DNA of 63,779 bases, filler included, from Reclinomonas americana ATCC 50394 (GCA_048213135.1; 4 parts of 3 records of this genome joined end to end with filler, not necessarily neighbours in it), one strand, 5' to 3'; numbered from the whole stretch's first letter, positions 3,001 through 63,779 are shown. Numbers and translations: made by a program. Notes: generated by a model from the letters alone, not told the origin.

Positions 3001-4376
3001 CCCCCGACATGCCGTACAAGCTGACGATCATGGTACGTGTTGTGCGCAAGCTTGTGTTGATATCGCACGGTTGATGACGCGTTCGGATGTACAGAGTCGC
3101 AACACCGGAAGCATGATGGTGGAGGCCGAGTCGCACTACTTTTTGGAGATTGCCGAGGACTGGACCAAAGTGTATGCGTATCTCATGGCCGGCGATCGAC
3201 GATTCAACTCTTCACGAGCGCTTCGCGTGTTTAAGAAGCCAGATGGTGAGTGTGAATGCGCGCATACGTGTGTACTACCACGGCAACACGCTGACACCAA
3301 CTCGCACCAGGCGTACGTGAGCGCCTGGAGGATTTCGACTCGCTGGAGCTGGCCACCATCAACGTTTGTGCGTCCACCCTTGACCGGCACTGCTTCCTCC
3401 ACTGCTTCCGCCTCCTCATCGTGCCGTGACTTGTCGCAGCCCATGGTCTCGAAGCCGGACTGTATGTCATGATTCCGTTCGTGTCGCAGCGCTTCTCGTC
3501 CTTCCGGCTGGTGGTGTGCTCCGATCGCCCTCTAAAGATACCATTTTGTGTGCTTGTGCTTCATTCCATGTCTGGCTTCGCGGTGCTGACAATTCTGTGA
3601 CGCGTGCACATGTCCAGCTTCCCCGACTCGGTGCTGCCGCAGATGCGAACGCACTTTCGCGCTTGCGATCCATCGGCTGACGGCCGGCTCAAGACAGAGC
3701 AGCTGCAGCAGCTGCTTGCTCGCGTCGGTGCGTGGCGCACGAATATGTGCCAGCAGCTGCAGAGGGAGGACTGAAATATAGGCGTGCTTGTGCATGCATG
3801 CAGGTCAAATATCGACGCCGTCGGAGCTGCGCGAGGCCATTCGCAGCATGGGCCGTGGTCGCGAGATGAGTCTCGACTTTGAGGAGAGCCTCATGTTGCT
3901 CACGAGCATGTGGTTGGTGCGTGCACACGGGATGACAATCGTGCACGAGGTGCTGTATGCTGCTGCTAACCCATGGTTTTCTTGCGCTGCGCAGCCGGAG
4001 GCGGCCATGGAGCACTCACTGCGTCAATCATTCCGAGCCATTGACACGGACGCCAACGGATACATTGAGCGCGAGGAGCTGCGCTTGTTCCTGCTGTCTC
4101 TCAGTCAGCCACTATCGGACACCGAGGTTTGTGACAGACAGGCAGGGGGGAAAGGGAGTGCCGCGTGCCTCATGTCTCACTTGCCGCGTCAACGTCGACA
4201 CAGATCGAACAACTGATCACATTGGCCGATCGCAATGGTTCCTCCCCATTCTTGGTGCTGTTTATTCTACGTTCACTGTGGCTCACCCACTCCTTCACTC
4301 TATCCCCACAGGCGACGGACGCATCGACTACGATGAGTGGGCGTCGAGTCTGCTGGCCGGACCACTGTCCCATTGA
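1..4376 (+). CDS. Kelch-repeat + calpain-like (CysPc, domain III) + calmodulin-like EF-hand protein, about 20 introns, 5' partial; probably catalytically dead
   Basis: Spliced translation gives Kelch-like YNDAWLL/PRPIRWHSM/VILYGG, a Pro/Ala linker, calpain motifs AGFYVVRLWVNGRQMYVVVDDMFP, LWPMVLEKAYAKLCGHYEAL and DFTG, domain-III-like GLYVMIPF, and EF-hands FRAIDTDANGYIEREEL and ADRNGDGRIDYDEW. Stop TGA at 4374-4376. Confidence 0.8.
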
Positions 4377-4471: not shown

Positions 4472-6539
4472 ATGACTCGCGTGGTCACGCTGCTCATTGC
4501 CTGGTGAGCACAAATCCAGTGATCCATACTCCTGAATGAGCTCGCATTCACACACACTGACACAGTCCATTCAACGGTGCGGTGGACGAGTGCACGCTGC
4601 CCTCTGACGCCAAAGTTTCCACTCTGTTGGACCTTGCACGCGGCAAGTTGGCCTCGTCACGCTCCGCTGGTGTGTGAGGAAACATTCCACGCGCCAGTGC
4701 GCTCGCTCATCATTCATCATCTCCTCATCGTGCAGACGCGCTGTCGTATGCCTCGTGGCGATCGGCGTTCGACTACTCACTCACACACCCGACCAGTCAT
4801 GCTCCTCTTGACACGCACGTCACGCTGGAGGAGGCTGGATTGCGTGATCGCGGTTGGTCGAAGCGAGTTGTCTCTCGCTCTCTTCGCATGTTCTTCTGCT
4901 CATTCGTGTGCGCTCGCAGATCTGCTGTTCCTCACGCAGAATGTGCGTGAGACGGCGTTGACAGAGGTCAAGCCGGCTGGGCGATTCCCCACTGAGGACG
5001 ACATTCAACGGGCGACCAGTGCGCTGCCGCCGGCGCCGTCGGCCGTGGAAATGCGCAGAACGGTCTGCATGAGTGGACGTGCGTGTGAGCCAGTGAGTGG
5101 CACTGACCGCCTGCTCCACACCAGAGTCGCTTCTCGGAGGCACTGTGCCGACGCCATCGCGTGGGATCGTACGGGCAGTCGCAACAAATGGCCACCCAAT
5201 TGACATCCAACGAGCTCGCGTCGCTGCTTCCGCGTGTGCCGGCTGCCGCTCTGGCGCAGCTGGTCGAAGTCGGCTTCCCGGACCTGCATTGCCGCAAGGC
5301 ACTGTACATTGCTCGGTGGGCATGCCGTTTTTCGACACTGTTGTGCTTGTGTGAGTGTGTGTGATGTTGCTGAGTGTTTGTGCGTGCGCGCTACGCAGGT
5401 TCCAGGTGGCGGTCGGATTGGAGTGGCTGCTGCGACATGCCGACACACCGGCCGTGCTGAATGCTCCTTTCACACGAGATGAACTGATCGGTATTCTGCG
5501 TGACCTCGGCGTGTCGGTGCCCGTTCGGCTGCCGTCGCCACCGCGTGCACCGTCGCCTCCACCAACACGCACAGTGCCGAGCAGCAACAGCAGCAGTGCC
5601 AGTGGCGGCGGCGGCAATGGCGGTGCCAGCAGTGCGTCGGCTCAGGCTTCTTCGGCCAGCGGAGGAGCAAGTGGATCACCTGCGGTCGACGAAGCAACCA
5701 GCACTGCGACGTTTGTCGCTGAAGAGGTTTTGCAGCCTTGATTCTGGTTCTGTTCTATGGAGAGCGCATCACTCATCTTTGTGTCACTGCCAGGTTCAAC
5801 GACAGCTGGCAGAACTGCAGGCGCAAATGGCGGAGTTGCAACAGCAACAGGAACTCATTCGTCGGCGATCGGCAGCAGCAGCGGCTGCGGAGGCTGCTTC
5901 CGGCGGCTCGAGCGCGGAGATTGCTGCTCGCGAGGCGATGGCGGGCGTGGAATTACGAGCGCGCATCACTACGTTGGTCGAGGCAATTGCGCGCCCACCT
6001 TTTGAGCCCGACGAGCAGGTGTGCAGACAATTTACCGGTAATGTCTGTGTCGCCTGCTTTGCTCACCCTTTGCACGCCACAGTCTCTCCGTGTGCTCACA
6101 TCCATGGGCTTCGATCACGAAAGAGTGCTCGACGCTCTGCGTGCGTCGCAGAATAACTATGAGCGCACGATTGTCATTCTTCTCGAGGATCTGCCAGTTG
6201 AACCAGCTCCACAGGTGACTTGATCGGCAGATTCATTTTTTGATTCAACGCCCTCATCGTCATGGCATTGTACGTGTAGGTGGACCCCGTGGTGCGCATC
6301 TTCCTCGCCCAACCAGCAATGCAGCGCATTCTCAGCGATCCACGTATCGTCCGAGGTTCGATCCTTGTTGTCGAGGCCGTCGACCCTCGCACACAGTCTA
6401 ACTGTGTTTTCGTCCTGACGCAGGATTGCACGAGCTCGTGAGCAACCCGGCCAGTGTCGACCGCCTCATGGGCGACCCGGAAATGTCGGTTGTCTTGCGC
6501 CACATGAGCGACCTGGTGACGCGGCATGAACAATCATGA
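4472..6539 (+). CDS. UBAC1: UBL-UBA-UBA-STI1 protein (UBAC1/KPC2-like), multi-exon
   Basis: Ubiquitin-like LDTHVTLEEAGLRDRDLLFL, UBA1 LAQLVEVGFPDLHCRKAL..GLEWLLRH, UBA2 LTSMGFDHERVLDALRASQNNYERTIVILL, and a C-terminal STI1-like PAMQRILSDPRIVRGLHELVSNP..MGDPE. Confidence 0.7.
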
Positions 6540-8581
6540 AGCGGCGTCGCGCTCATTGACACTGTCGTCATTGTTGTTGCCGTCGTCTCTCGCCAGTTCA
6601 TCCTCCGTCGCCTCTGTGAGCCACCAATGTCCAGCCTCCTGCATGTCGACTTGCTTGTTGGCGCATCCGACCGCTCCGTCGTAGTGCAGTAGCGGCGCTG
6701 ACACTGCGCCGGACGTCGGTCGCAACCAACGCGTCGATGCGACGTCGTCCGGCGAGAACAAGCACAGAGAGACTTTCGGTGTCGGTGTCGTGTTGGCCAG
6801 TGACGACGTTCCCGGCAGCACTTGCATGCTCCACCGCAGCGGTTCCTTGCGCAGCAGCTCGTTCAGCGACTCAGACACGGTCAAATGGGACCAGCGCTGT
6901 CGACCGCGCGAGTTCTGAATGTGGCGAAGTGAGCGCCGCAAGAGCGCAATACTCGCCGGCGTCGGTTGCAAGTGGGCGACGGCAAGCGAGAGAGGGAATA
7001 CACCGGAAGAGGTGAGCGCAGCTGCACTACCCATGGTCCAATCACACTGCTGCGGCACGATCGAGTCCAGTGGGTTGTCTAGCAGCACTGCGTCGTTGTC
7101 CATCAGAAGCACACTGACGCCGCGCTCCAGAATCATGAGCGCCGTCTGCAGACGATAGATCTGCAAGCGACGCTGCAGAGGGGATCCTGCGTACTGCTCC
7201 GGGTCCATTGCATTCAATTCAGTTGCTGCCAGCCAGTTCGTTGGAAAGTGAATAACATCAGGCAGGTGGTGGACGTGTTGTATCAAGTCCTTGGCCGTGT
7301 AGGAGGTTGCAATGTACAGAAAGGTGGCTGACACGTAAGCCTTGCGAACGGAGCACACAGAGTTGGCCATCAACGTCGTATGCACTGGATTGGCTGACCA
7401 CAAGGCAACCAGAGAGGGCTTCCGTGCAAAGAGATCAGCAGGCCATTTGTCGGCGACAGCGACAACAGAATTGCCAGTGAGATCTGGGCACCGACCATTG
7501 TCATCCAGCAGCCACTTGCCCGCATCACGCAGGGCGCGTTCCTTCTCCGCAGCACCCATCGCACGGCCCACGTGCACCACGTGTTCCTGCATCGCAGCCG
7601 CGGACCACACACACAGACGGCATTGACCTGAGTTGCCAGCAGCAGGTGCTTTGCCCGTCTGCGGCAGCAACTGCCACGCAGGCTGTTGCGTAGTCAACCA
7701 GCGGAACAAAAGTTCGTGTGTCCACTGACTGCGGCCGCGCGACGGGTGCGCCACAGCATGCAAAATCCACTTCTCAAACATGGTGGCCGACGGTGTGTGG
7801 TGGCGAATCAACCACACGCCCGGATGTATGTACGGCAGCGGCGACGAGTCGGCTGGCGACCGTCCACGTTGCTGCAACACCCAGTCGCACTTGGCCAAGG
7901 CGGGCCGACGCAGCACCGACCTCTGCAGCATAACATCGCCCAGCACCACATCGGCATCCAGCAACAACACATCGTACCCTCGCCGCAGCAGCAGTGCAGC
8001 CACACGATGTACGGCCACGTGCAAACGATGCCGCGTCGACGTTCCCGGCCACGCCATCGTCGCTTGTGCACCACCTGGCACTGCGTTCACACGCAAGTGC
8101 GAGTATCCGTGAGCGAGTAACTCGGCCGACGCCGACTCATCCAGCGCCACCGGCAACACATTCCCGTCGCCAACACGGTGCAATTGCAACAGCAAGTTGA
8201 GCAGCACTTGCACACACGCACCATCGCTCCACGTGACCATCACGGGCGCCTTGACCAGGTGCAGTCCGTGAATGGCGTCGTCCACGGAACCAAACGCCAC
8301 CGGCGAGGCAGAAGTCTGCATCGCAAAACGAGTGAGCTTGCACATCAACAGACGCATGCGCGCACACACACACACGCACACACACGCACCACCACTGCAG
8401 GCAGCGAGTCCACGGCACCGGCAATGACATTGTCATGTTCGGAAGTGGACGAAGGCGCCGATGTGTGCGTGTGCAGTTGCCACACGGACCACGCGGCGAA
8501 GAGGAGCACGAGCGTACCGAGGAGAATGCGCACGAGTGGACGAGTGCGCCAGGTCATTATGTGTCGACCAAAGCGGCGCAT
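6534..8581 (-). CDS. Type II membrane glycosyltransferase with two tandem nucleotide-diphospho-sugar transferase (GT77-like) domains
   Basis: Exon 1 (8581 or 8557 to 8390) has a signal anchor, ILLGTLVLLFAAWSVW. Exon 2 (8315-6534) has two DxD motifs, LLLRRGYDVLLLDADVVL and MILERGVSVLLMDNDAVLLDNP. Confidence 0.75.
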
Positions 8582-8661: not shown

Positions 8662-10518
<1,857 letters not shown>

Positions 10519-10797: not shown

Positions 10798-11594
10798 GGC
10801 TGATGTGCTGTCGTTCAGAACAAAGTAGCGACTGTCATGAAAATCCCCGTCGTGTGCACCGAGCACAACAAGAGTTGCGAGTGTGTGATGAAGTGCGCCT
10901 CCTTGTGGCCGTCGGTGAGTGACGCGTACGTGCTGTGCAGAGGTGTTTGGTCCGACGGTCGACGAGATCCAGCTGCCGTCGCATGCGCAAGTCTTCCAGA
11001 AGCTCCGATTCTCCATGTGCTCCTCCGAGACGATGCCGCACCTGCTACGGCCAAGCACCAATGCCTCGCATGTGGTGCTGTATGGCATTGAGGTGCGTTG
11101 CGTGAGTTGTCGGATCGTCGCCGTCTTCCCCAGTGACTGACTGACGTGGTGCGAGACAGACGCACATTTGCGTGCTGCAAACTGCGCTGGAACTGCGCGA
11201 CAAGAACTTTGAGGTGCACATTCCGCTTGACGCAGTCTCCAGTCAGCGGCAATACGATCGGCACGCAGCGATCGAGGTGCGTTTTGCAGCTGACGTCGAT
11301 GGATTTCTCTCGTCTCTGTTCTCATGCCGAATCACGCTGCAGAGACTGAAGGCGATTGGGTGCCACATGACGAGCGTCGAGTCGTTGCTGTTCCAGTTAA
11401 TGGAAACTGCCGAGGTTCGCGCGCGTTTCGCAGTCCTGCTGCTGTTGCTGTCCGTCATTTTGTTTGTGATTCACCAACGGAGAGTTGTGTGTGTTTCCCA
11501 GTCACCATACTTCCGTGATATCATCAAGCTGGTCAAGGAGGTGGATCGTGGCACACACCGGAACTTCCTTGTAGTGGACCCTGTCAATCATTGA
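10560..11594 (+). CDS. Isochorismatase-domain protein (ISOC1/2-like)
   Basis: AFLCCDIQ, IPVVCTEH, FGPTVDEI, KLRFSM, VVLYGIETHICVLQTALEL, DAVSSQR, ESLLFQLM. Six introns. In-frame upstream ATGs exist at 10527 and 10515. Confidence 0.9.
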
Positions 11595-27477: not shown

Positions 27478-27577
27478 NNNNNNNNNNNNNNNNNNNNNNN
27501 NNNNNNNNNNNNNNNNNNNNNTTAATTAATTAANNNNNNNNNNNNNNNNNNNNNNNNNNNNNNNNNNNNNNNNNNNN
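27478..27577. other. Artificial contig-join linker N44-TTAATTAATTAA-N44
   Basis: Six-frame-stop palindrome embedded in exactly 100 nt. Identical linkers occur at two other sites. Confidence 0.95.
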
Positions 27578-53612: not shown

Positions 53613-53732
53613 TGTCGATCATTCGCGGTGAGACGCACATGCACAGCGACACAAACAACAACCGCACACAAGCACAAGCACACGAATGCACACACAGACA
53701 CCAACCACGCAAAAGTGCGCACACATACACAC

Positions 53733-53744
53733 ATTTGTTGTCAT
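53733..53744 (-). CDS. First micro-exon (MTTN) of a further WD40 copy cut off by the contig edge
   Basis: ATGACAACAAAT|GTGTGT followed by an intron homologous to those of the other copies. Confidence 0.65.
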
Positions 53745-55810
53745 TCTCCGTGCGCGTGTGTGTGTGTGATTTGCTCGCTCTGGATTGTCACCGTTTCCCG
53801 CCTTTCTTCTCCCGCCTAGCTCTGAGACGTCGTCCATCCCTCGCCACGCTGCAACCAGCACCCCACACAACACACAGTAGTTGGCTCCGATGATGCGCGT
53901 GATCTTTCGAAGACCGACATGAGGCTCGTCGATGCGAAATTGGCAGAATGGACATGCTGGTGGTGGTGGCACAAGGTGGCGCTCCACTCCACCATGCTGC
54001 TGTCCAGCAACACTCCCATTCGACTGACCAGCATTCTCTCTCAGTGAGGACTGGAGCGCTGGGCTGTTTGGATGCGCAGCTGTGGTCCTGTTGTGCTGAT
54101 GCACGGCACACCCGAGAATCCATGGAGTTCCGAGTCGTAGATACCTCACACCTCCTTGGATCGGCCCACAGCAAGGCTGATTAGGGGCACACGAGGATGG
54201 AACAATGAAGAAGGAGAGTCAAAAGGAACAGGAGAGGAACGACCAGCACAGTAGCACGTGCACAGCGATGGACGAGGCAGCTGTGATAGTGAGGCTCGCC
54301 TCCTCTCACCCAATTGCAAGTCACAGTCAATGCCTCGCGCCTTCAATCACACTCACAGTCGGTCGGTGCATTATCTCATGCATGCACTGTGTGGCACGGA
54401 ACCACGTGTCTTCGCATGCCAGTGACGAGTCACTTGCCAGCACGCCTGTCACACAGAATTGAGTCAGCAAATCTCCAATCTCACCAACTTACTCCTCAAC
54501 GCAGATGCAGAACACGTACGCACCAGGCCACGCGCGCGTCTGCAGTCTCCCATGGCCATCACCATCATTACTTGGCGGCGACAGCAGCAACCAAGAAGCG
54601 CACATCATCGATTCGCTCCGACTCGCCAGCCGGGATTGAAAACGATGCACCGACCAGGCCATCCATCGCACATCACGACACACATGTGTACATCCACCCA
54701 GCCACGCTCTCCATGGCATGCACGGCCTTCATGAATGAGGTAAGTGGAAGGGAAGGAGGAAAGAGAGATCAAGACGAACAAGGCCACACACCTGCTTCGT
54801 GCATGGTGGGATGCGAGCGGGGAGCCGACTGAGTGAGGTGATACCGAGTAACGGGCGAGGCACAGCACGTCTGCAATCATTACGGAACGACGAGGAGCAC
54901 GTGCCTCCAAGGTGTCTGCATGTCGGTGCGCAGTGAGCAAAAGGAACGGAGGAAGGAGAGAGAGATCTGCTCTGTCTCAACGACGAACACACCGATCAGC
55001 ATCTGATATCAACACGCGGTTTTGTCAAGAGGCAAGGCGACGGACGGTTCTGCACACACATCCATCCTACGAGAGAGAGAGAGAGAAAGAAAGAGAGAGA
55101 GAGAGAGAGAGAGCAGAGTCAGCATGCAGTCATGCCACTTCGGCATCGACATGCTCCCCATGATGGACTGGCAATCGATGGCAATCGGAACACGGTGAGC
55201 GGACCAGCAGCTCGACCTCGAGCGTGTGCGGCAAAGAGGGGTGGATGACTGGGGAAGCAGATGAGCGCACAAAGGAGAGAGGTGGCGGAGAAAGAGAGAA
55301 TCAACAAAGGACAGAAAAGAGGAAGAGGGGAAAGACATGCATTCTTCAGAGACGGAAGGAGAACATCCGCGGCGCACATGTAAACACTGAGACTGAGAGT
55401 AGTGGCGCCAAGGAGGCATGCATAAAACAAGACGCGAGGGAATAATCATCAGTGACTCGCTTTCCCGAGGCACATGCATACACGACTAAAGATGCACGCA
55501 CAAAGAGACGAAAAAGAGCAAGAGACTCCCAAGTGATCCGTCGAGCTTGCACACAAAATAGAGGTGAGAAAGAGACACGCACACAGAGAGAGACATGCTT
55601 CACGACCGCACAATACACATTCACGTGCACATGACAGGGCAACAAGCACAGAGAACAATTCTGCATCATCCACGTCGACTTCTCTGTCCTCTGTCATCCT
55701 CTCTTCCCCGACCTGCACCCCGCACAACCACCCGCACTCCCGCGCAAGACACGAAAAAACAACTCACGATCGCCAGCAGCCACCGCTCTCCCTTCCTTCG
55801 ACTCACCGAC

Positions 55811-56998
55811 TCAGCATCGGAAAAGGACGACCTCGGCATCTTCGACGATGAAACAGCGCAGAACCAGCTCGGGAAGGCATCTTGAATCTTCTTCTTCCTC
55901 CAGCATGTCCTGCACAGCCCGCATGGCCGAGCGCGCGGCGTCGAGTTCAAGGCGGGCGAGGCCACGCGGCGTGGACCACACTCGCACCGTCTTGTCCTTG
56001 CCACCGGCGCTCACAATGTGCTGACCATCGGGAGAGACGGCCACAGACGATACCCATGAAGTGTGTCCCTCCAACCGTCGCACTTCCTCGCCACTCGCCA
56101 GAGACCACACCCGCACGGTGTTGTCCCCACCCGCACTCACGACATGCTGACCGTCGGGAGAGACGGCGATTGATTGTACGAATGCAGTGTGTCCCTCGAA
56201 ACGTCGCACTTGGTCTCCACTCATCAGCGACCACACTCGCAGGGTGCGGTCCGCACTTCCACTAACAATGTGCTGACCATCAGGAGTAACAGCGACAGAG
56301 TGCACCCATCCAGTGTGTCCCGCCAACCGTCGCACCTCCTCCCCACTCGCCATCAACCACACTCGCACGGTGTTGTCTCCACCGCCGGTCACTATGTGCT
56401 GACCATCAGGAGTGATGGCGACTGACCACACATATCCAGTGTGTCCTTCCAGCCATCGCACCTCCTCCCCACTCGCCAGAGACCACACTCTCACTGTGGT
56501 GTCCCAGCTCCCACTGACAATGTGCTGGCCATCTGGAGTAACAGCGACAGACCACACCTTAACATCGTGTCCCTCCAACCGTCGCTCTTCATCGCCACTC
56601 GCCAGCGACCACACACGTACTGTTTTGTCTTGGCCCCCACTGATAATAAGCTGACCATCATTTGTGACGGCGACAGAGTTCACCCCACCAGCGTGTCCCT
56701 CCAGCCGTCGCACTTCGTCGCCACTCGCCAGAGACCACATTCGAATGATTGCGTCCACACACCCACCAACAATGTGCTTGCCATCGGGAGTGACGGCGAC
56801 TGACTGCACCACAGCGAGACTCTGAATGATCTGTGTCGATCACTCGCGATGAGACGCACACACAACATCAACTTTCGAAGACATGCACAACAACACAAAG
56901 CACACAAACGACAACCGCACACGATGCACAAGCATACGAATGAACGCACAGACACCAACCACGCAAAAGTGCGCACACATTCACACCTTTGTTGCCAT
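55811..56998 (-). CDS. WD40-repeat protein, 7 repeats + conserved C-terminal tail
   Basis: Exon 1 56998-56987 (MATK) and exon 2 56830-55811, with GH..V.SVAVTPDGQHIVSG..D.TVRVW repeats. Confidence 0.92.
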
Positions 56999-59176
56999 TC
57001 CGTGTGTGTGATTTGCTCGCTCACGATTGTCACCGTTTCCCGCCTTTCTTCTCCCGCCTTGCTCCAAGACGCCATCCATCCCTCGCCAGGCTGCGTCCAG
57101 CACCTCACACAACAGACGGTAGTGTGTGAACGATGTGGCTCCGATGATGCGTGTGGGATTTTGAAGACCGATATGAGCCTCGTCGATGCGCAATCGGCAA
57201 AATGGACATGCTGGTGGTGACGACACAAGGTGGCGCTCCACTGCACCGTGCTGCTGTCCAGCGACACTCTCTTTCGACTGACTTGCATTCTCAATCAACG
57301 AGGATCCGCATGTCGTGCTGCTTGGATACGCAGATATGGCTCTGTTGTGTTGATGCCACGGCACACACGAGAATCAATTGTGCAGCGAGTTAGCGACACC
57401 TCACACCTCCTTGGCTCGGCCCACAGCGAAGCTGACGAGGTGCACGTCATGATGGTACGATGAAGAGGGAGAGTCACAGGGGACAGGAGAGGAGCGACCA
57501 GTACAGTAGCACAGCGATGGAAGAGGCAGCGCTGTCGTGAGACTCGCCTCCTCTCACCCAAGTCACAATCGATGCCTCATGCCTTCAATCACACTCACAG
57601 TCGGCCGGTGCATTGTCTCATGCATGCACTGTGTGGCACGGAACCACGTGTCTTCATGCCAGTGACGACTCACTTGCCAGCACGCCTGTCGCACAAAATT
57701 GAGTTAGTCAATCTCCAAGTCTCACCAACTTACTCCTCAACGCAAATGCAGAACACGTACGCACCAGGCCGCGCGCGCGTCTGCAGTCTCCCATGGCCAC
57801 CGTATCATTACCTGGCAGCAACCAAGAAGCGCACATCATCGATCCGCTCTGACTTGCCAACCGGGATCGAGAACGATCCACCGACCAGGCCACCCATCGG
57901 GAAACACGACACGCATGTGTCCACCCATGAGTAGATTGCCGAGCACGCGTCTGCAGTCTTCCATGACCACCAGCGTCATCACTCGACAGAGACGGCGGCA
58001 ACCAAGGTGCGCACATCATCGATCCGCTCCGACTTGCCAGCCGGGATTTAAAAGGATCCACTGACCAGGCCATCCATCGCACAGCACGGCACGCAGGTGT
58101 ACAGCCACCACGCCACACCCTCCATGACATGCACGGCCTGCATGAATGAAGTGAGTGGGAGAAAGAGGAAAGAAAGATCACGCCGAACAAGGCCACACCT
58201 GCTGAGTGCATTGGTGGGATGCGAGTGGGGAGCCGAGTGAGTGAGGTGACGGTCGACAACGGGTAATGCACAGCACGCCTGTCATCGCCACGACATGCTT
58301 TCTATGGTCTCTGCATGTCGGTACACTGTGAGCAAAAGGAATAGAGGAAGGAGAGATATCTGCTCTGTCTCACGTGACGAACACACCGATCAGCATCTGA
58401 TACCAACACGCGTTTGTCAAGAAGCAAGCCAAGAGATGCTCACACAACCATCCTGCAAGGGAGAGAAGGAGCAGAGTCAGTATGCAGGTATGCCACCTCA
58501 CACACTTCGGCATCGGGAAGCTCACCATGATGGACTGGCAGGATGGCAATCGGAACACGGTGAGCAGACCAGCAGCTCGACCTCGAGCGTGTGCGGCAAG
58601 GGGGGCGGATTACTGGGGAATCAGATGAGCGCACAAAGGCAGGGAGATGGCGGAGAAAGAGATAGACTCTGCAGGAGGCAGGAAAAAGAGAGCTGAAAGA
58701 CAGGCATCCTGCAGAGACGGAAGGAGAATGTCCACGGCGCACGTGCACAATGGGAAGCAGAGTATAGCGGTGCCAAGGAGGTGCGAAAAACAAGACGCGA
58801 GGGAAACAGACAACGGCGACTCGCCCTCCTGAGGCACACACATGCACGAATAAGATGCACGCACAACAGACATCACAACGAGACAAAAGAACACAACAGA
58901 CTCCCAAGTGATTCATCGAGCTTGCACACAAAATGGAGGTGAGAAAGAGACACGTAAACAGAGGGAGACGTGCTGCACTACCTCTCTCTCACTCACATGT
59001 TAGGGCACCAAGCACAGAGAACAATTCTGCGTCATCAACAACGAACTCTCTCCTCTCCTCTGTCATCCTCTTCCCCCTCCTGCACCTCGCACAACCACCC
59101 ACTCTCCCTCGCAAGACACGAAAAAACAACTCATATTCTCCAGCAGCCACCTTCTCCCTCCCTTCGACTCACCTTC

Positions 59177-60082
59177 TCAGCACCGAAAAAGGACGACCTC
59201 GGCATCCTCGATGATGAAACAGCGCAGAACCAGCTCGGGAAGGCATCGTGAATCTACTTCTTCCTCCAGCATCTCCTGCACGGCGTGCATGGCCGAGCGC
59301 GCGGCGTCGAGTTCGAGACGAGCGAGGCCACGCGGTGTGGACCACACTCTCAGGGTCTTGTCGTAGCCACCCGCACCCACAATGTGCTGACCATCGCGAG
59401 AGACGGCAACAGATATCACCAGGTGCGTGAGTCCCTCCAACCGCCGCACTTCCTCGCCACTCTCCAGAGACCATACCCGCACGGTGCTGTCCTCGCTCCC
59501 ACTCACGACATGCTGACCATCGGGAGAGACGGCCACACACGACACCCATCCGGTGTGTCCCTCCAACCATCGCTCTTCCTCGCCACTCTCCAAAGACCAT
59601 ACCCGAATGGAGCTGTCCCCGCTCCCGCTCACGATGTGCTGTCCATTTGGGGTGACGGCGACAGACGACACCCAGTCAGTGTGTCCCTCCAGCCGCAGCA
59701 CCTCCTCCCCACTCGCCAGCGACCACACACGTACTGTGTTGTCTCCATCCCCACTCACAATGTGCAGGCCATCGGGAGTGACGGCGACAGACAACACCTC
59801 GCCAGCGTGTCCCCCCAGCCGTCGCACTTCTTCTCCACTCGCCAAAGACCACACTCGAACGGTGCTGTCCAAGCACCCACCGACAATGTGCTTGCTATCG
59901 GGAGTGACGGCGACGGACCGCACCGAAGAAGCGAGACTCTGAATGATCTGCGTCGATCATTCGCGGTGAGACGCACACACACAAACACACAAACGACAAC
60001 CGCACACATGCACGAGCACACGAATGCACGCACAGACACCAACCACGCAAAGGTGCGCATACATTCACACCTTGGTTGTCAT
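59177..60082 (-). CDS. WD40-repeat protein, 5 repeats + conserved tail
   Basis: Exon 1 60082-60071 (MTTK) and exon 2 59947-59177. Confidence 0.9.
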
Positions 60083-62265
60083 TCTCCTGTTTGTGTGTGA
60101 GTGTGTGATTTTGCTCTCGCTCCGGATTGTCACCGTTTCCCGCCTTTCTTCTCCCGCCTTGCTCCGAGACGTCCCGCATCCCTCGCCAGGCTGCAATCAG
60201 CACCCCACACAGCATGCGGTAGTGTGTGAACAATATGGCTCCGATGATGCGTGCGGGCTTTCGAAGACCAACATGTACATGGGACTCGTCGATGGGAAAT
60301 CGGCAAAATGGACATGCGAGGTGGTGGCACGAGGTGAAGCTCCGCTGCACCGTGCTGCTGTTCAGCGACACTCTCTTTCTACTGCCCTGCATTCTCTCTC
60401 AACGAGGACTGGCATGTCATGCTGCTTGGATACGCAGTTGTGGCCCTGGTGTGCTGATGCCACGCCACACCCGTGATTCAATTGAGCAGCGAGTCTTCGA
60501 AACCGCACACCTCCTTGGATCGGCCCACAGCGAAGCTGACGAGGTGCACGTCATGATGGTACGACGAAGAGGGAGAGTCACAGGGAACAGGAGAGGAGAG
60601 ACCAGCACAGCAGATCAGCGATGGACGAGGCAGCTGCTCACAATCAATGCCTCGTGCCTTCAATCACACTCACAGTCGGTCGGTGCATTGTCTCATGCAT
60701 GCACTGTGTGGCACGGAACCACGTGTCTTCGCATGCCAGTGACGAGTCACTTGCCAGCACGCCTGTCACACAGAACTGCGTCAGCAAATCTCCAATCTCA
60801 CCAACTTACTCCTCAACGCAGAAGCAGAACACGCACGCACCAGGCCACGCGCGCGTCTGCAGTCTCCCATGGCCATCACCATCAGTACTTGGCGGCGACA
60901 GCAGCAACCAAGAAGCGCACATCATCGATCCGCTCTGACTTGCCAACCGGGATCGAGAACGATCCACCGACCAGACCACCCATCGGGAAACACGACACGC
61001 ATGTGTCCACCCATGAGTAGATTGCCGAGCACGCGTCTGCAGTCTTCCATGGCCACCAGCATCATCACTCGACAGAGACGGCGGCAGCCAAGGTGCGCAC
61101 ATCATCGATCCGCTCCGACTTGCCAGCCGGGATTTAAAAGGATCCACTGACCAGGCCACCCATCGGGAAACACGACACGCAGGTGTACACCCACTCAGCC
61201 ACGCTCCCCATGGCTGCACGAATGGGGTGAGTGAGAGGGAAGGAGGAGAGATAGGTTACGACGCGAACAAGGCCACACACCTACTGAGTGCATGGTGGGA
61301 TGTGGATGGGGAGCCGAGTGACAGCCGGCGATGGGCGATGCACAGCACGTCTGACATCGTCACGAAACAACAACGAGGAGCACGTGTTTCCAAGGCGTCT
61401 ACATGTCGGTGTACAGTGAGCAAAAGAATGGAGGAAGGAGAGAGATATCTGCTCTGTCTCAACGACGAAACACACCGATCAGCATCTGATGCCAACACGC
61501 GGTTGGTCAAGAGGCAAGCCAAGGGACGGTTTTGCACGCACAATCATCCCGGCAAGGGAGAGGGAGAGTAGAGTCAGCATGCAGGTATGCCACCTCACAC
61601 ACTTCGGCATCGGGAAGCTCACTATGATGGACTTGCAGGATGACAGTCGGCGCATCATGAGCGGACCAGCACGTTCGGCCTCGCAAGTGTATGGGAAGGA
61701 GGGGCGTATTACTGGTGAAGATCATGAGCGCACAAGGAGAAAGTGTGTGAGAGAAAGAGACTCTGCAAGGGACACAAAGGGAGGAACGAAATGACTGGCA
61801 TCCTGCAGAGCCGAAAGGAGAATGTCCACGGCGCACAGGCACAATGGGAAGCAGAGTATAGAGGTGCCAAAGTGGTGCGCAAAAGAAGACGCGAGGAAAT
61901 AAACAACGGTGACTCGCTCTCATGAGGCACGTATATCAGCGACGAAAGATGCACGCACAACAGACATCACAACGAGACGAAAAAGAAATCACAGACTCCA
62001 ATTGATTCATCTCGCTCGCATACACAAACGGAGGTGAGAAAGAGGCAAGCATGCAGAGGAAGACGTGCTCCACGCCGCACAATCACACTCTCATTCACAT
62101 GACAGGGCAACAAGCACAGAGAACAATTCTGCATCATCCACGTCGACTTCTCTCCTCTCGTCAGTCATCCTCTCTTCTTTGCATGATCACCCGCACCCCC
62201 ACACAAGACACGAAAACAAACTCACAATCACCAGTAGCCACCTTTCCTCCCTTCGACTCACCAAC

Positions 62266-63446
62266 TCAGCACCGAAAAAGGACGACCTCGGCATCCTCGA
62301 CGATGAAACAGCGCAGAACCAGCTCGGGAAGACATCGTGAATCTACTTCTTCCTCCTGCATCTCCTGCACAGCCTGCATGGCCGAGCGCGCAGCGTCGAG
62401 TTCGAGATGAGCGAGGCCACGCGGCGTAGACCACACTCGCACGGTCTCGTCGTAGCCACCCGCGCTCACAATGTGCCGACCATCGGGAGAGACGGCCACA
62501 GACGACACCCATGAAGTGTGTCCCTCCAACTGTCGTACTTCCTCCCCGCTCGCCAGAGACCACATCCGAATTGTGCCGTCTCCGCTTCCACTAACAATGT
62601 GCTGACTGTCGGGAGTGATGGCGACAGACTGCACCCATCCAGTGTGTCCCTCCAACCGTCGAACTTCTTCCCCACTCGTCAGTGACCATACCCGCACGGT
62701 GCTGTCCTCGCTCCCACCTACAATGTGCTCACTGTCCGGGGTGACAGCGACGGACATAATCGTACTGGTGTGTAGACATCCCTTCAGCCATCGCACCTCC
62801 TCACCGCTCTGCAGTGACCACACCCGCACAGTGTTATCTCCACCGCCACTCACGATGTGTTGACAATCGGGAGTGACGGCAACAGATGTAACCCATCCAG
62901 TGTGTCCTGCTAATCGTCGCGCCTCCTTTCCACTCGCCAACGACCATACCCGCACTGTGTAATCGTAGCTGCCGCTGATGATGTGCTTACCATCGGGGGT
63001 GACGGCGACAGACGCCACCGCACTGGTGTGTCTCATTTGCCGTCGTACCTCCTCCCCATTCGCCAGCGACCACACTCGAACTGTGTTGTCATAGCTGCCA
63101 CTGACAACGTGGTGGCCATCAGGAGTGACGGCAACAGAGTACACAATGTGAGCGTGTCCATCCAGCCGTCGCACTTCTTCTCCGCTCGCCAGAGACCACA
63201 TTCGAACGGTACTGTCCTCACATCCACCGACAATGTGTTCGCCATCGGGAGTGACGGCGATGGATCGCACCGCAGCGAGACTCCGAATGATCTGTGCCGA
63301 TCACCCGCAGTGAGACGCACGCAGCAGCAATCAAAGACAACATAACAACACAAGAACAACAACCGCACACACGCACGAGCACACGAATGCACGCACAGAC
63401 ACCAACCACGCAAAAGTGCGCACACATTCACCACCTTTGTTGCCAT
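62266..63446 (-). CDS. WD40-repeat protein, 7 repeats + conserved tail
   Basis: Exon 1 63446-63435 (MATK) and exon 2 63291-62266. Confidence 0.92.
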
Positions 63447-63779
63447 TCTCCGTACGTGTGTGTGTGTGTGTGTGTGTGCGATTTGCTCGCTCGGGATTGT
63501 CACTGTTTCCCGCCTTTCTTCCCGCCTTGCTCTGAGACGTCGTTCATCCCTCGCCAGGCTGCAACCAGCACCCCACGCATCATGCGGTGTGTGTGAGCGA
63601 TGCGGTTCCGATGATGCGCGTGATCTTTCGAAGACCGACATGAGGCTCGTCGATGCGAAATTGGCAGAATGGACAAGCAGGGTGGTGGCTCGAGGTGGCG
63701 CTCCACTGCATCGCGCTGCTGTCCAGCGACACTCTCCTTCGACTGCCCTTCATTCTCTCTCAACGAGGACTGGCATGTC

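Follow-up and report, generated by a model that had tools for sequence, protein, structure and literature searches.

What does a head-to-tail family of WD40-repeat genes do when its repeats differ from one another mainly at a few fixed positions: does it recognize non-self, or does it supply interchangeable binding adaptors? The question is raised by one contig within a 63,779-nucleotide (nt) stretch of DNA from Reclinomonas americana ATCC 50394 (GCA_048213135.1), which we refer to as the window. The original prediction, made from the sequence alone, had read these genes as an immune- or effector-like recognition family comparable to the fungal HET-E/HNWD receptors. We think it probable, though by no means certain, that the locus instead holds tandem, stand-alone, moderately repetitive WD40 paralogs with a short upstream exon, a private C-terminal tail and divergent faces, serving as interchangeable binding adaptors.

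A tandem array of WD40 genes

The window is made up of four joined contigs (1-27477, 27578-48012, 48113-53512 and 53613-63779) separated by three identical linkers, N44-TTAATTAATTAA-N44, at 27478-27577, 48013-48112 and 53513-53612. Because the contigs are joined in this way, genes on opposite sides of a linker are not syntenic, and the rest of the window is silent on the synteny of the WD40 genes. These lie on the last contig (the WD contig, 10167 nt), which is cut off at both ends. Its minus strand bears three open reading frames (ORFs), here g1, g2 and g3, which measured from stop to stop comprise 342, 259 and 344 codons; under translation table 11 the same three frames occupy 55811-56812, 59177-59923 and 62266-63270. 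The locus is arranged as follows.

53513..53612, no strand: linker N44-TTAATTAATTAA-N44, joining an unrelated contig to the WD contig
53613..55810, minus strand: spacer downstream of g1, homologous to the other spacers and forming the 5′ flank of a fourth copy
55811..56839, minus strand: g1, seven WD40 repeats (55943-56824) and a 54-residue tail (55814-55975)
56840..59176, minus strand: spacer between g2 and g1, upstream of g1, with candidate ATGs at 56998, 56980, 57079, 57288 and 57311
57568..57956, no strand: conserved spacer block, 88-99% identical between units, with homologous blocks at 54326-54658 and 60643-61042
59177..59956, minus strand: g2, five WD40 repeats (59309-59938) and tail (59180-59341), frame intact, no ATG before the tail
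59957..62265, minus strand: spacer between g3 and g2, upstream of g2, with candidate ATGs at the homologous places 60082, 60064, 60179, 60392 and 60415
62266..63300, minus strand: g3, seven WD40 repeats (62398-63285) and tail (62269-62430)
63301..63779, minus strand: partial spacer upstream of g3, truncated where the contig and window end, with one candidate ATG at 63446

All three ORFs belong to the WD40 repeat/beta-propeller family, with matches to PF00400 above the gathering score in each (expect values, E, of 5.8e-79, 7.5e-49 and 6.3e-73; 257.7, 162.5 and 238.6 bits against a cut-off of 27) spread over 5-7 stretches. In-register cutting yielded 7, 5 and 7 repeats of 42 amino acids (aa) in g1, g2 and g3, 19 in total, and Tandem Repeats Finder set the period at 126 nt and the copy numbers at 6.6, 4.3 and 6.2 (70-76% matches). 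The g2 gene is shorter than g1 by exactly 252 nt, which is two repeats, while g3 has a 2-residue insertion between its repeats 4 and 5. The frames, of 259-344 codons, are open with no stop or frameshift at a nucleotide divergence of about 20%.

Self-comparison revealed that the genes are part of a 3.1-3.4 kb unit arranged head to tail, with units 78-83% identical including the inter-gene DNA. The region at 53613-55810 is a full spacer copy, and the contig border falls 3 nt short of the acceptor-like CAG that precedes each WD frame; hence a fourth gene begins where the contig stops. The sequence thus suggests a tandem array of at least four units, of which three have readable WD ORFs. The original prediction of at least four head-to-tail copies holds for the array, through this fourth 5′ flank, while the readable WD ORFs number three.

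Variable slots on a conserved scaffold

The highest Shannon entropies among the 19 repeats are those of column 7 (3.37 bits, 12 residues) and column 5 (3.11 bits, 12 residues), followed by columns 26 (2.78), 23 (2.39) and 4 (2.25), whereas A10, D25, R29, W31 and G36 are invariant in all 19. Columns 5, 7, 23 and 26, which we call the slots, flank the conserved V6 and D25, column 24 being a gap column. Among the 13 internal repeats, which are the 19 minus the first and last repeat of each gene, aa identity is 0.14 at the four slots versus 0.74 elsewhere, and the four-residue slot combination is distinct in 19 of 19 repeats. The variants that had been quoted for the GH-x-x-x-V-x-S motif are all present, in g1 as AGG/N (repeat 2), DVK/W (repeat 3), TGY/W (repeat 4), TGW/H (repeat 5) and TAF/Q (repeat 6) and in g3 as AHI/Y (repeat 2) and TSA/A (repeat 3), as are those of SG-x-x-D-x-T (GQ/K, SW/T and SA/R in g1; SY/Y and SE/S in g3). 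The entropy peaks bear out the claim of fixed variable slots; the scaffold is conserved, but to call it nearly invariant goes too far, as repeat pairs are 41-90% identical in aa and 54-90% in nucleotides.

Non-synonymous change at the slots

The original prediction had proposed a per-codon test of the ratio of non-synonymous to synonymous change (dN/dS, or omega) over the repeats. We applied three approaches, and recombination between repeats, which inflates tests of this kind, is not part of the models behind any of the values that follow. Nei-Gojobori pairwise counting on the five most variable columns gave a slot dN/dS of 1.07-1.10 versus 0.19-0.25 for the scaffold, and by the same method the closest repeat pairs have a scaffold dS of 0.42-0.43 and a slot dN of 0.49-0.63. 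Parsimony counting on a maximum-likelihood repeat tree, with the four positions fixed a priori from the HNWD paper, assigned 65 non-synonymous changes to the slots, a dN/dS of 1.52 against the dS of the other codons (Poisson P ~0.001) and 1.27 against their own dS, with 0.29 for the other codons. Column 7 alone reached 2.15 by counting (P 0.0014, uncorrected for 42 columns).

Likelihood models in our own GY94/MG94 implementation gave a background omega of 0.25-0.27 with kappa of 3.1-3.5. With a synonymous rate shared by all columns, slot omega was 2.3-2.9 (likelihood-ratio test statistic, LRT, 26-40; p <=3e-7), similarly with or without the slot columns in the tree, and column 7 alone gave 4.5 (p 3.5e-7). 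When the slots were given their own synonymous rate, the ratio of the two rates (beta/alpha) was 1.7-2.2 and was not significant (p 0.05-0.19). There is thus an excess of non-synonymous change at the slots, as had been predicted, and its strength and significance depend on the model.

The scaffold and the tail are under purifying selection. Tail dN/dS is 0.14-0.25 at a dS of 0.14-0.30 in all three gene pairs, including those with g2. Taken together, the scaffold omega of about 0.26, the tail omega and the intact frames point to functional genes.

Repetitive WD40 proteins of bacteria carry the same signal

Searching bacterial genome contigs with g1 yielded 79 loci containing 165 ORFs of at least 250 aa, of which 54 have at least six in-register 42-aa repeats. 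As a control set we took the 29 proteins whose mean internal identity lies between 0.53 and 0.77, a band that brackets the WD locus, and left out the other 25, which lie outside it; two of the 29 are near-identical copies from one genome. The same MG94 pipeline was applied to the same four columns. Slot omega exceeded 1 in 22 of the 29 controls, in 17 of them with LRT >3.84, and its median was 1.74. In this pipeline the WD locus scored 2.44 over its 16 non-terminal repeats (3.30 for g1, 2.45 for g3 and 2.12 for the internal repeats), and 9 of the 29 controls lie above 2.44.

Because bacterial controls show the same omega excess, the slot signal is a property of repetitive WD40 proteins and cannot alone identify a receptor repertoire. 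The excess fits specialisation of blades after internal duplication, and sensor roles of the bacterial proteins are also possible.

Two of the bacterial loci, L057 and L061, lie about 90 kb apart on one bacterial metagenome-assembled scaffold and hold two near-identical 12-repeat WD40 genes with the same control statistics; their genome is labelled Mycoavidus cysteinexigens, which makes this a duplicated repetitive WD40 gene in a fungal endosymbiont.

Comparison with HET-E/HNWD and with repetitive WD40 classes

Paoletti et al. (2007; PMC1805685) describe codons 7, 9, 25 and 27 as under strong positive selection, paired around the purified codons 8 and 26; in their homology model of HET-E these four map to the top face, within the d-to-a loop and the b-c turn. 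Since our unit starts two residues later and has one gap column, those codons correspond to columns 5, 7, 23 and 26, so that the slots are the same four hypervariable codons in the same two pairs, and the equivalence drawn in the original prediction is sound. Their place on the top face is taken from the published HET-E model, and by analogy the slot residues would line that face here.

The locus resembles HET-E, HET-D and HNWD of Podospora anserina in its 42-aa consensus-like WD unit with these four codons, in the excess of non-synonymous change at the slots, in repeat-number variation from member to member (7, 5 and 7 among the three paralogs) and in having several paralogs. A 2010 study by Chevanne and colleagues reportedly deals with the NWD NACHT-WD40 proteins of the same fungus. 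Unlike in HNWD, neither a NACHT domain nor an N-terminal HET or other effector domain was found at the locus; only WD and propeller families match the ORFs, and the spacer searches revealed no NACHT domain, as had been predicted. Unlike HNWD, whose repeats are about 85-100% identical, repeats here are 41-76% identical within a gene. The genes also differ in being stand-alone single propellers of 5-7 blades in a head-to-tail array, with a private C-terminal tail and a protist host.

High internal conservation has been set at >=85% identity over >=100 aa (Dyrka et al., 2014; PMC4986451), well above the within-gene repeat identity found here (mean 0.62, maximum 0.76). Nor did we see concerted evolution: identity of internal repeats is 0.67 inside a gene and 0.69 across genes, even the closest pair of them has a 17% nucleotide difference, and near-identical repeats are absent. 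Between paralogs, orthology is clear for the first repeats (16-22% nucleotide difference) and for the last (10-20%). Internal repeats have best matches that differ by 17-28% and lack one-to-one orthology, which could reflect old shuffling or simply faster change. We considered g2 repeat 2 as a chimera of unequal crossing-over and rejected it, since its differences from repeats 2, 3 and 4 of g1 are distributed evenly.

A closer class is that of the repetitive WD40 proteins. The interaction hotspots of WD40 proteins are named R1, R1-2 and D-1. Hu et al. (2017; PMC5587647) report that diversity at hotspot sites is general to highly repetitive WD40 proteins, and define the moderately repetitive class by at least 6 repeats with pairwise identities all >=0.4 and not all >=0.7, the highly repetitive class by >=0.7; in their survey only about 2% of fungal and protist WD40 proteins lie above 0.4. 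By this rule, internal identity is 0.56 for g1 and 0.60 for g3 over six repeats, and 0.46 for g2, which has only five repeats. Thus g1 and g3 fall in the moderately repetitive class and short of the highly repetitive one. They share with the proteins of Hu et al. a consensus-like scaffold with diversity at interaction hotspots, and differ from them in the eukaryotic host, whole-gene tandem duplication and private tail; many bacterial repetitive WD40 proteins have 10-17 repeats, unlike the single propeller here.

The best structural match in the PDB was the repetitive WD-40 repeat protein of Nostoc (2ymu, E 3.9e-140); next came designed consensus propellers, PkwA, G-beta, RACK1, WDR5 and Apaf-1. 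Of 8000 candidates scored in a whole-protein search, 3902 had E <=1e-20; identity reaches 57% among the 120 that were listed, which are bacterial, with some fungal proteins and one from EukProt. Among the listed matches, the WD40 sensors of bacteria and basidiomycetes that are linked to STAND, kinase, TIR or caspase modules (PkwA, 5yzv) have single repeats 50-77% identical to ours and are up to 57% identical as proteins. Those sensors carry an N-terminal signalling or nucleoside triphosphatase (NTPase) module, whereas none is detectable here, and none of them has the tail. The Gcp1-3 WD40 proteins described with the mitochondrial type II secretion system (PMC8134430) were considered and set aside as unrelated; they are Pex7-like, with another repeat type. 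A search of a limited literature collection brought up no publication describing stand-alone repetitive WD40 genes in tandem, whether from jakobids or from other protists.

Because three defining features of HNWD fail here (NACHT, high internal identity and concerted evolution), the locus is not a member of the HNWD family. It is a new representative of repetitive WD40 proteins with variable hotspots.

A private C-terminal tail

All three genes end in the same non-WD tail, 54 aa counted from STPRG, of which about 43 aa extend past the last repeat unit. No homolog was found among 42 candidates of near length, and against 212 longer proteins the listed matches covering at least three quarters of the query region were only 33-43% identical. 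With the tail as query, index-free phmmer returned exactly one match among 1.84 billion representatives (E 3.2e-11, 72% identity), an expressed sequence tag (EST) of Reclinomonas americana, EC795383.1 (EukProt EP00694_P005839; P0241), with a 116-aa translation. The EST holds the end of one WD repeat, one full repeat and then the tail, which it matches at 72% over 53 of the 54 tail residues; it differs in being a 116-aa fragment, with a tail that is longer at the end and has an insertion. Since this EST carries a last repeat and the tail together, a relative of the genes is transcribed in a jakobid and the tail is conserved.

When the three tails were searched by themselves against Pfam, at E up to 10, the one match was RRM_1 (E 0.17), in a single tail. 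The tail has no profile match to the SOCS box that follows WD40 repeats in proteins of the WSB type, and an Atlas search with it reached a best score of 0.77, below the useful level. A metagenome match to the tail (24 aa in L001) was dismissed as chance, its frame being full of stops.

Gene starts and spacers

An acceptor-like CAG follows a conserved TGA in all copies, and a TG-rich run precedes each WD frame. The open frame of g1 spans this upstream TGA to its stop, and the coding exon of g1 probably starts at 56830 or 56821, behind an acceptor-like AG. Elsewhere in the window, at 9080-10207 (plus strand), lies a gene for a MYST-family histone acetyltransferase (zf-MYST E 5.9e-22, with MOZ_SAS pieces in three frames). 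Three GT..AG introns, each about 70-80 nt long, split it, and a TG-rich stretch precedes the acceptor AG of one of them. This split gene shows that the genome is intron-bearing, and the Pfam matches to MOZ_SAS, zf-MYST, isochorismatase and EF-hand cover only parts of their profiles. In this the window is unlike Andalucia godoyi, described as compact and intron-poor (PMC7050145). A kinetoplastid type of genome (no introns, trans-splicing), which GC content and microsatellites had at first suggested, was rejected in view of these domain fragments and of the three introns in the MYST gene.

A short ATG-bearing first exon before the WD exon is therefore a plausible reading of the sequence, and we enumerated start models as ATG..GT / AG combinations that keep the frame, with one upstream exon only. 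There were 168, 145 and 66 such models in units 1-3. Ten of them use the same alignment columns in units 1-3, each adding only 3-17 codons, and none of the single-upstream-exon models brings a domain. In one conserved model the start codons are the ATGs at 56998, 60082 and 63446, to which an ATG at 53744, within the fourth flank, is homologous; the candidate at 63446 coincides with the end coordinate given in the original prediction.

The spacers were also searched for coding content. The spacer at 56840-59176 has a TG-rich intron-like stretch before the acceptor and no protein domain in six frames. Among 61 six-frame ORFs of at least 70 aa between 50003 and 58939 there was no credible Pfam match; the best spacer matches, none better than E 0.005, are low-complexity or partial. 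A tblastn search with 240 WD40 relatives, many bearing NACHT, kinase, TIR or other N-terminal modules, produced 4634 high-scoring segment pairs (HSPs), with 0 outside the three WD ORFs, although both kinds of search could miss small or very divergent exons. Scans of the window with Rfam and for tRNAs gave no match.

The conserved spacer block carries the splice-like signals GTAAGT and CTAAC...CAG and overlaps a 180-nt tandem duplication (57768-58107; 60852-61193). Small exons, a regulatory element, recent gene conversion or a mobile fragment could each account for it. A frame with a CPFCR motif at 57192-57260 (minus strand) and at homologous places matches only the last 16 positions of the RING profile (E 0.04-0.05). 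We rejected an upstream RING as part of the genes, since 2-nt indels disrupt this frame in two of the four copies, and regard it as a possible RING relic. Plus-strand spacer ORFs of 156-265 aa were likewise rejected as genes, since the frame differs between units.

Other features of the window

Beyond the WD contig, a 632-codon open frame at 6537-8432 (minus strand) has a nucleotide-diphospho-sugar transferase domain (PF03407, E 4.5e-15), and its Atlas neighbours are eukaryotic clusters of the same family. Partial domain matches at 29546-30484 (minus strand), 3782-4213, 5723-6220 and 11145-11591 (all plus strand), to ADP-ribosylglycohydrolase (E 3.7e-11), EF-hand, UBA and isochorismatase, are probably exons of split genes. 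At the end of the contig next to the WD contig, 52977-53249 (plus strand) holds a frame resembling leucine-rich repeats (LRR_1, E 0.08 only); the frames next to it are shifted, and it has no relation to the WD contig.

Discussion

In the reading that we prefer, each unit would encode one stand-alone WD40 beta-propeller, seven-bladed in two copies and five-bladed in one, with the tail after the propeller. The long ORF would be the last exon, preceded by a very short ATG exon and a TG-rich intron of about 100-470 nt. Residues needed for folding would be held by purifying selection, while four residues per blade, around V and D, change at or above the synonymous rate, so that each blade and each paralog would offer a different predicted binding surface. 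The constant tail may tie all paralogs to one common partner or place. The family would change by tandem duplication of the unit and by in-register gain and loss of 126-nt repeats, a mechanism suggested by the observed repeat counts. As judged from their sequence, the proteins are most likely interchangeable binding adaptors of differing specificity.

Several observations weigh against this reading. In every copy the head of the open frame lacks an ATG, and each frame opens just after a conserved in-frame TGA; the first internal ATG lies in blade 1, and in g2 that codon is GTG. The first exon proposed here is a guess, with ten conserved candidate models that fit the sequence. For propeller closure, tail position and the placing of the slots on the top face, we rely on repeat register and the published HET-E model. 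Five blades, as in g2, are unusual for a WD40 protein, and this copy may be dead or may stem from an assembly collapse; dN/dS in comparisons of its first and last blades is higher than between g1 and g3. Finally, the spacer block (88-99% identical) is more conserved than the WD repeats (69-89%) and comparable to the tail (88-95%), which the adaptor reading leaves unaccounted for.

Part of this evidence would suit a different account, that the array is a diversifying repertoire for recognition of non-self or effectors, of the HET-E/HNWD kind without a nucleotide-binding oligomerisation domain (NOD), under ongoing selection and repeat shuffling and with the tail as signalling or adaptor end. The hypervariable positions are the same four as in HNWD, slot omega is 2.3-2.9 with a shared synonymous rate (4.5 at column 7, p 3.5e-7), all 19 slot combinations are distinct, and repeat number varies as 7, 5 and 7. 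The WD repeats are moreover the most diverged part of the unit, the internal ones lack the one-to-one orthology that first and last repeats keep, the array sits on a contig that assemblers could not extend, and the nearest relatives of the repeats are STAND- or kinase-linked WD40 proteins, including some named HET-E-1. Nevertheless, we consider this account unlikely. The same omega excess occurs in 22 of 29 bacterial WD40 proteins, significantly in 17, and 9 exceed 2.44; a slot-specific synonymous rate leaves p at 0.05-0.19, and pairwise counting gives only 1.07-1.10. The signal is also uneven between orthologs, being high in blade 1 and amounting to 1 non-synonymous change in 11.7 sites in the last blade of g1 versus g3. 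There are no near-identical repeats and no homogenisation within genes, the paralogs are old (dS 0.14-0.30) rather than a fast-turnover set, and no NOD or death domain was found. The bacterial controls mean that repeat-level dN/dS cannot carry an immune reading, which is improbable as it stands.

Two further accounts concern whether the ORFs are whole genes at all. They might be decaying relics, promoterless or start-less pseudogene copies in a satellite-like tandem repeat, with the slots drifting neutrally as the least constrained sites. The missing ATGs with the TGA just upstream, the loss of two repeats and of the internal ATG in g2, a slot dN/dS near 1 by counting, spacers conserved as much as or more than the coding repeats, and the upstream RING-like CPFCR remnant, its frame broken by 2-nt indels between copies, would all agree with decay. 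It is nonetheless quite unlikely given purifying selection on scaffold (0.25-0.29) and tail (0.14-0.25) in every pair including g2, 259-344 codons free of stops and frameshifts at about 20% divergence, and a transcribed homolog that keeps the last repeat and tail; short introns are nothing unusual for this genome, and an acceptor-like site is conserved ahead of each ORF. Alternatively, each ORF could be the last exon of a larger gene, with an N-terminal effector or NOD either divided among small exons in the 2.3 kb spacer or too divergent to detect. The canonical splice-like signals GTAAGT and CTAAC...CAG in the conserved block speak for such a gene, as do the division of domains into small exons elsewhere in the genome and the restriction of the Pfam scan to frames of at least 70 aa. 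Yet spacer ORFs on both strands are separated by frame-breaking indels between copies, 0 of the 4634 tblastn HSPs from 240 WD40 relatives fall outside the WD ORFs, and the spacer Pfam matches, none better than E 0.005, are low-complexity or partial, which leaves a hidden N-terminal module very unlikely.

For WD40 proteins at large, the main lesson of the locus is a caution: a conserved scaffold with hypervariable slots and omega >1 is usual in repetitive WD40 proteins and is not alone evidence of immune receptors. The conserved private tail, common to the WD genes and the Reclinomonas EST, marks a small new family. There is a slim prospect that the array is a NOD-less variable-binder system in a deep-branching protist, in which slots are kept diverse by selection and by gain and loss of repeats and the private tail couples the proteins to a common downstream partner. 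If so, the protist would have made a recognition repertoire out of the sensor module that is coupled to STAND NTPases in fungi and bacteria, with a different wiring. A selected repertoire, if true, would extend the HET-E-style variable WD40 sensor to a jakobid-like protist in a NOD-free format, and would bear on the age and modularity of this sensor.

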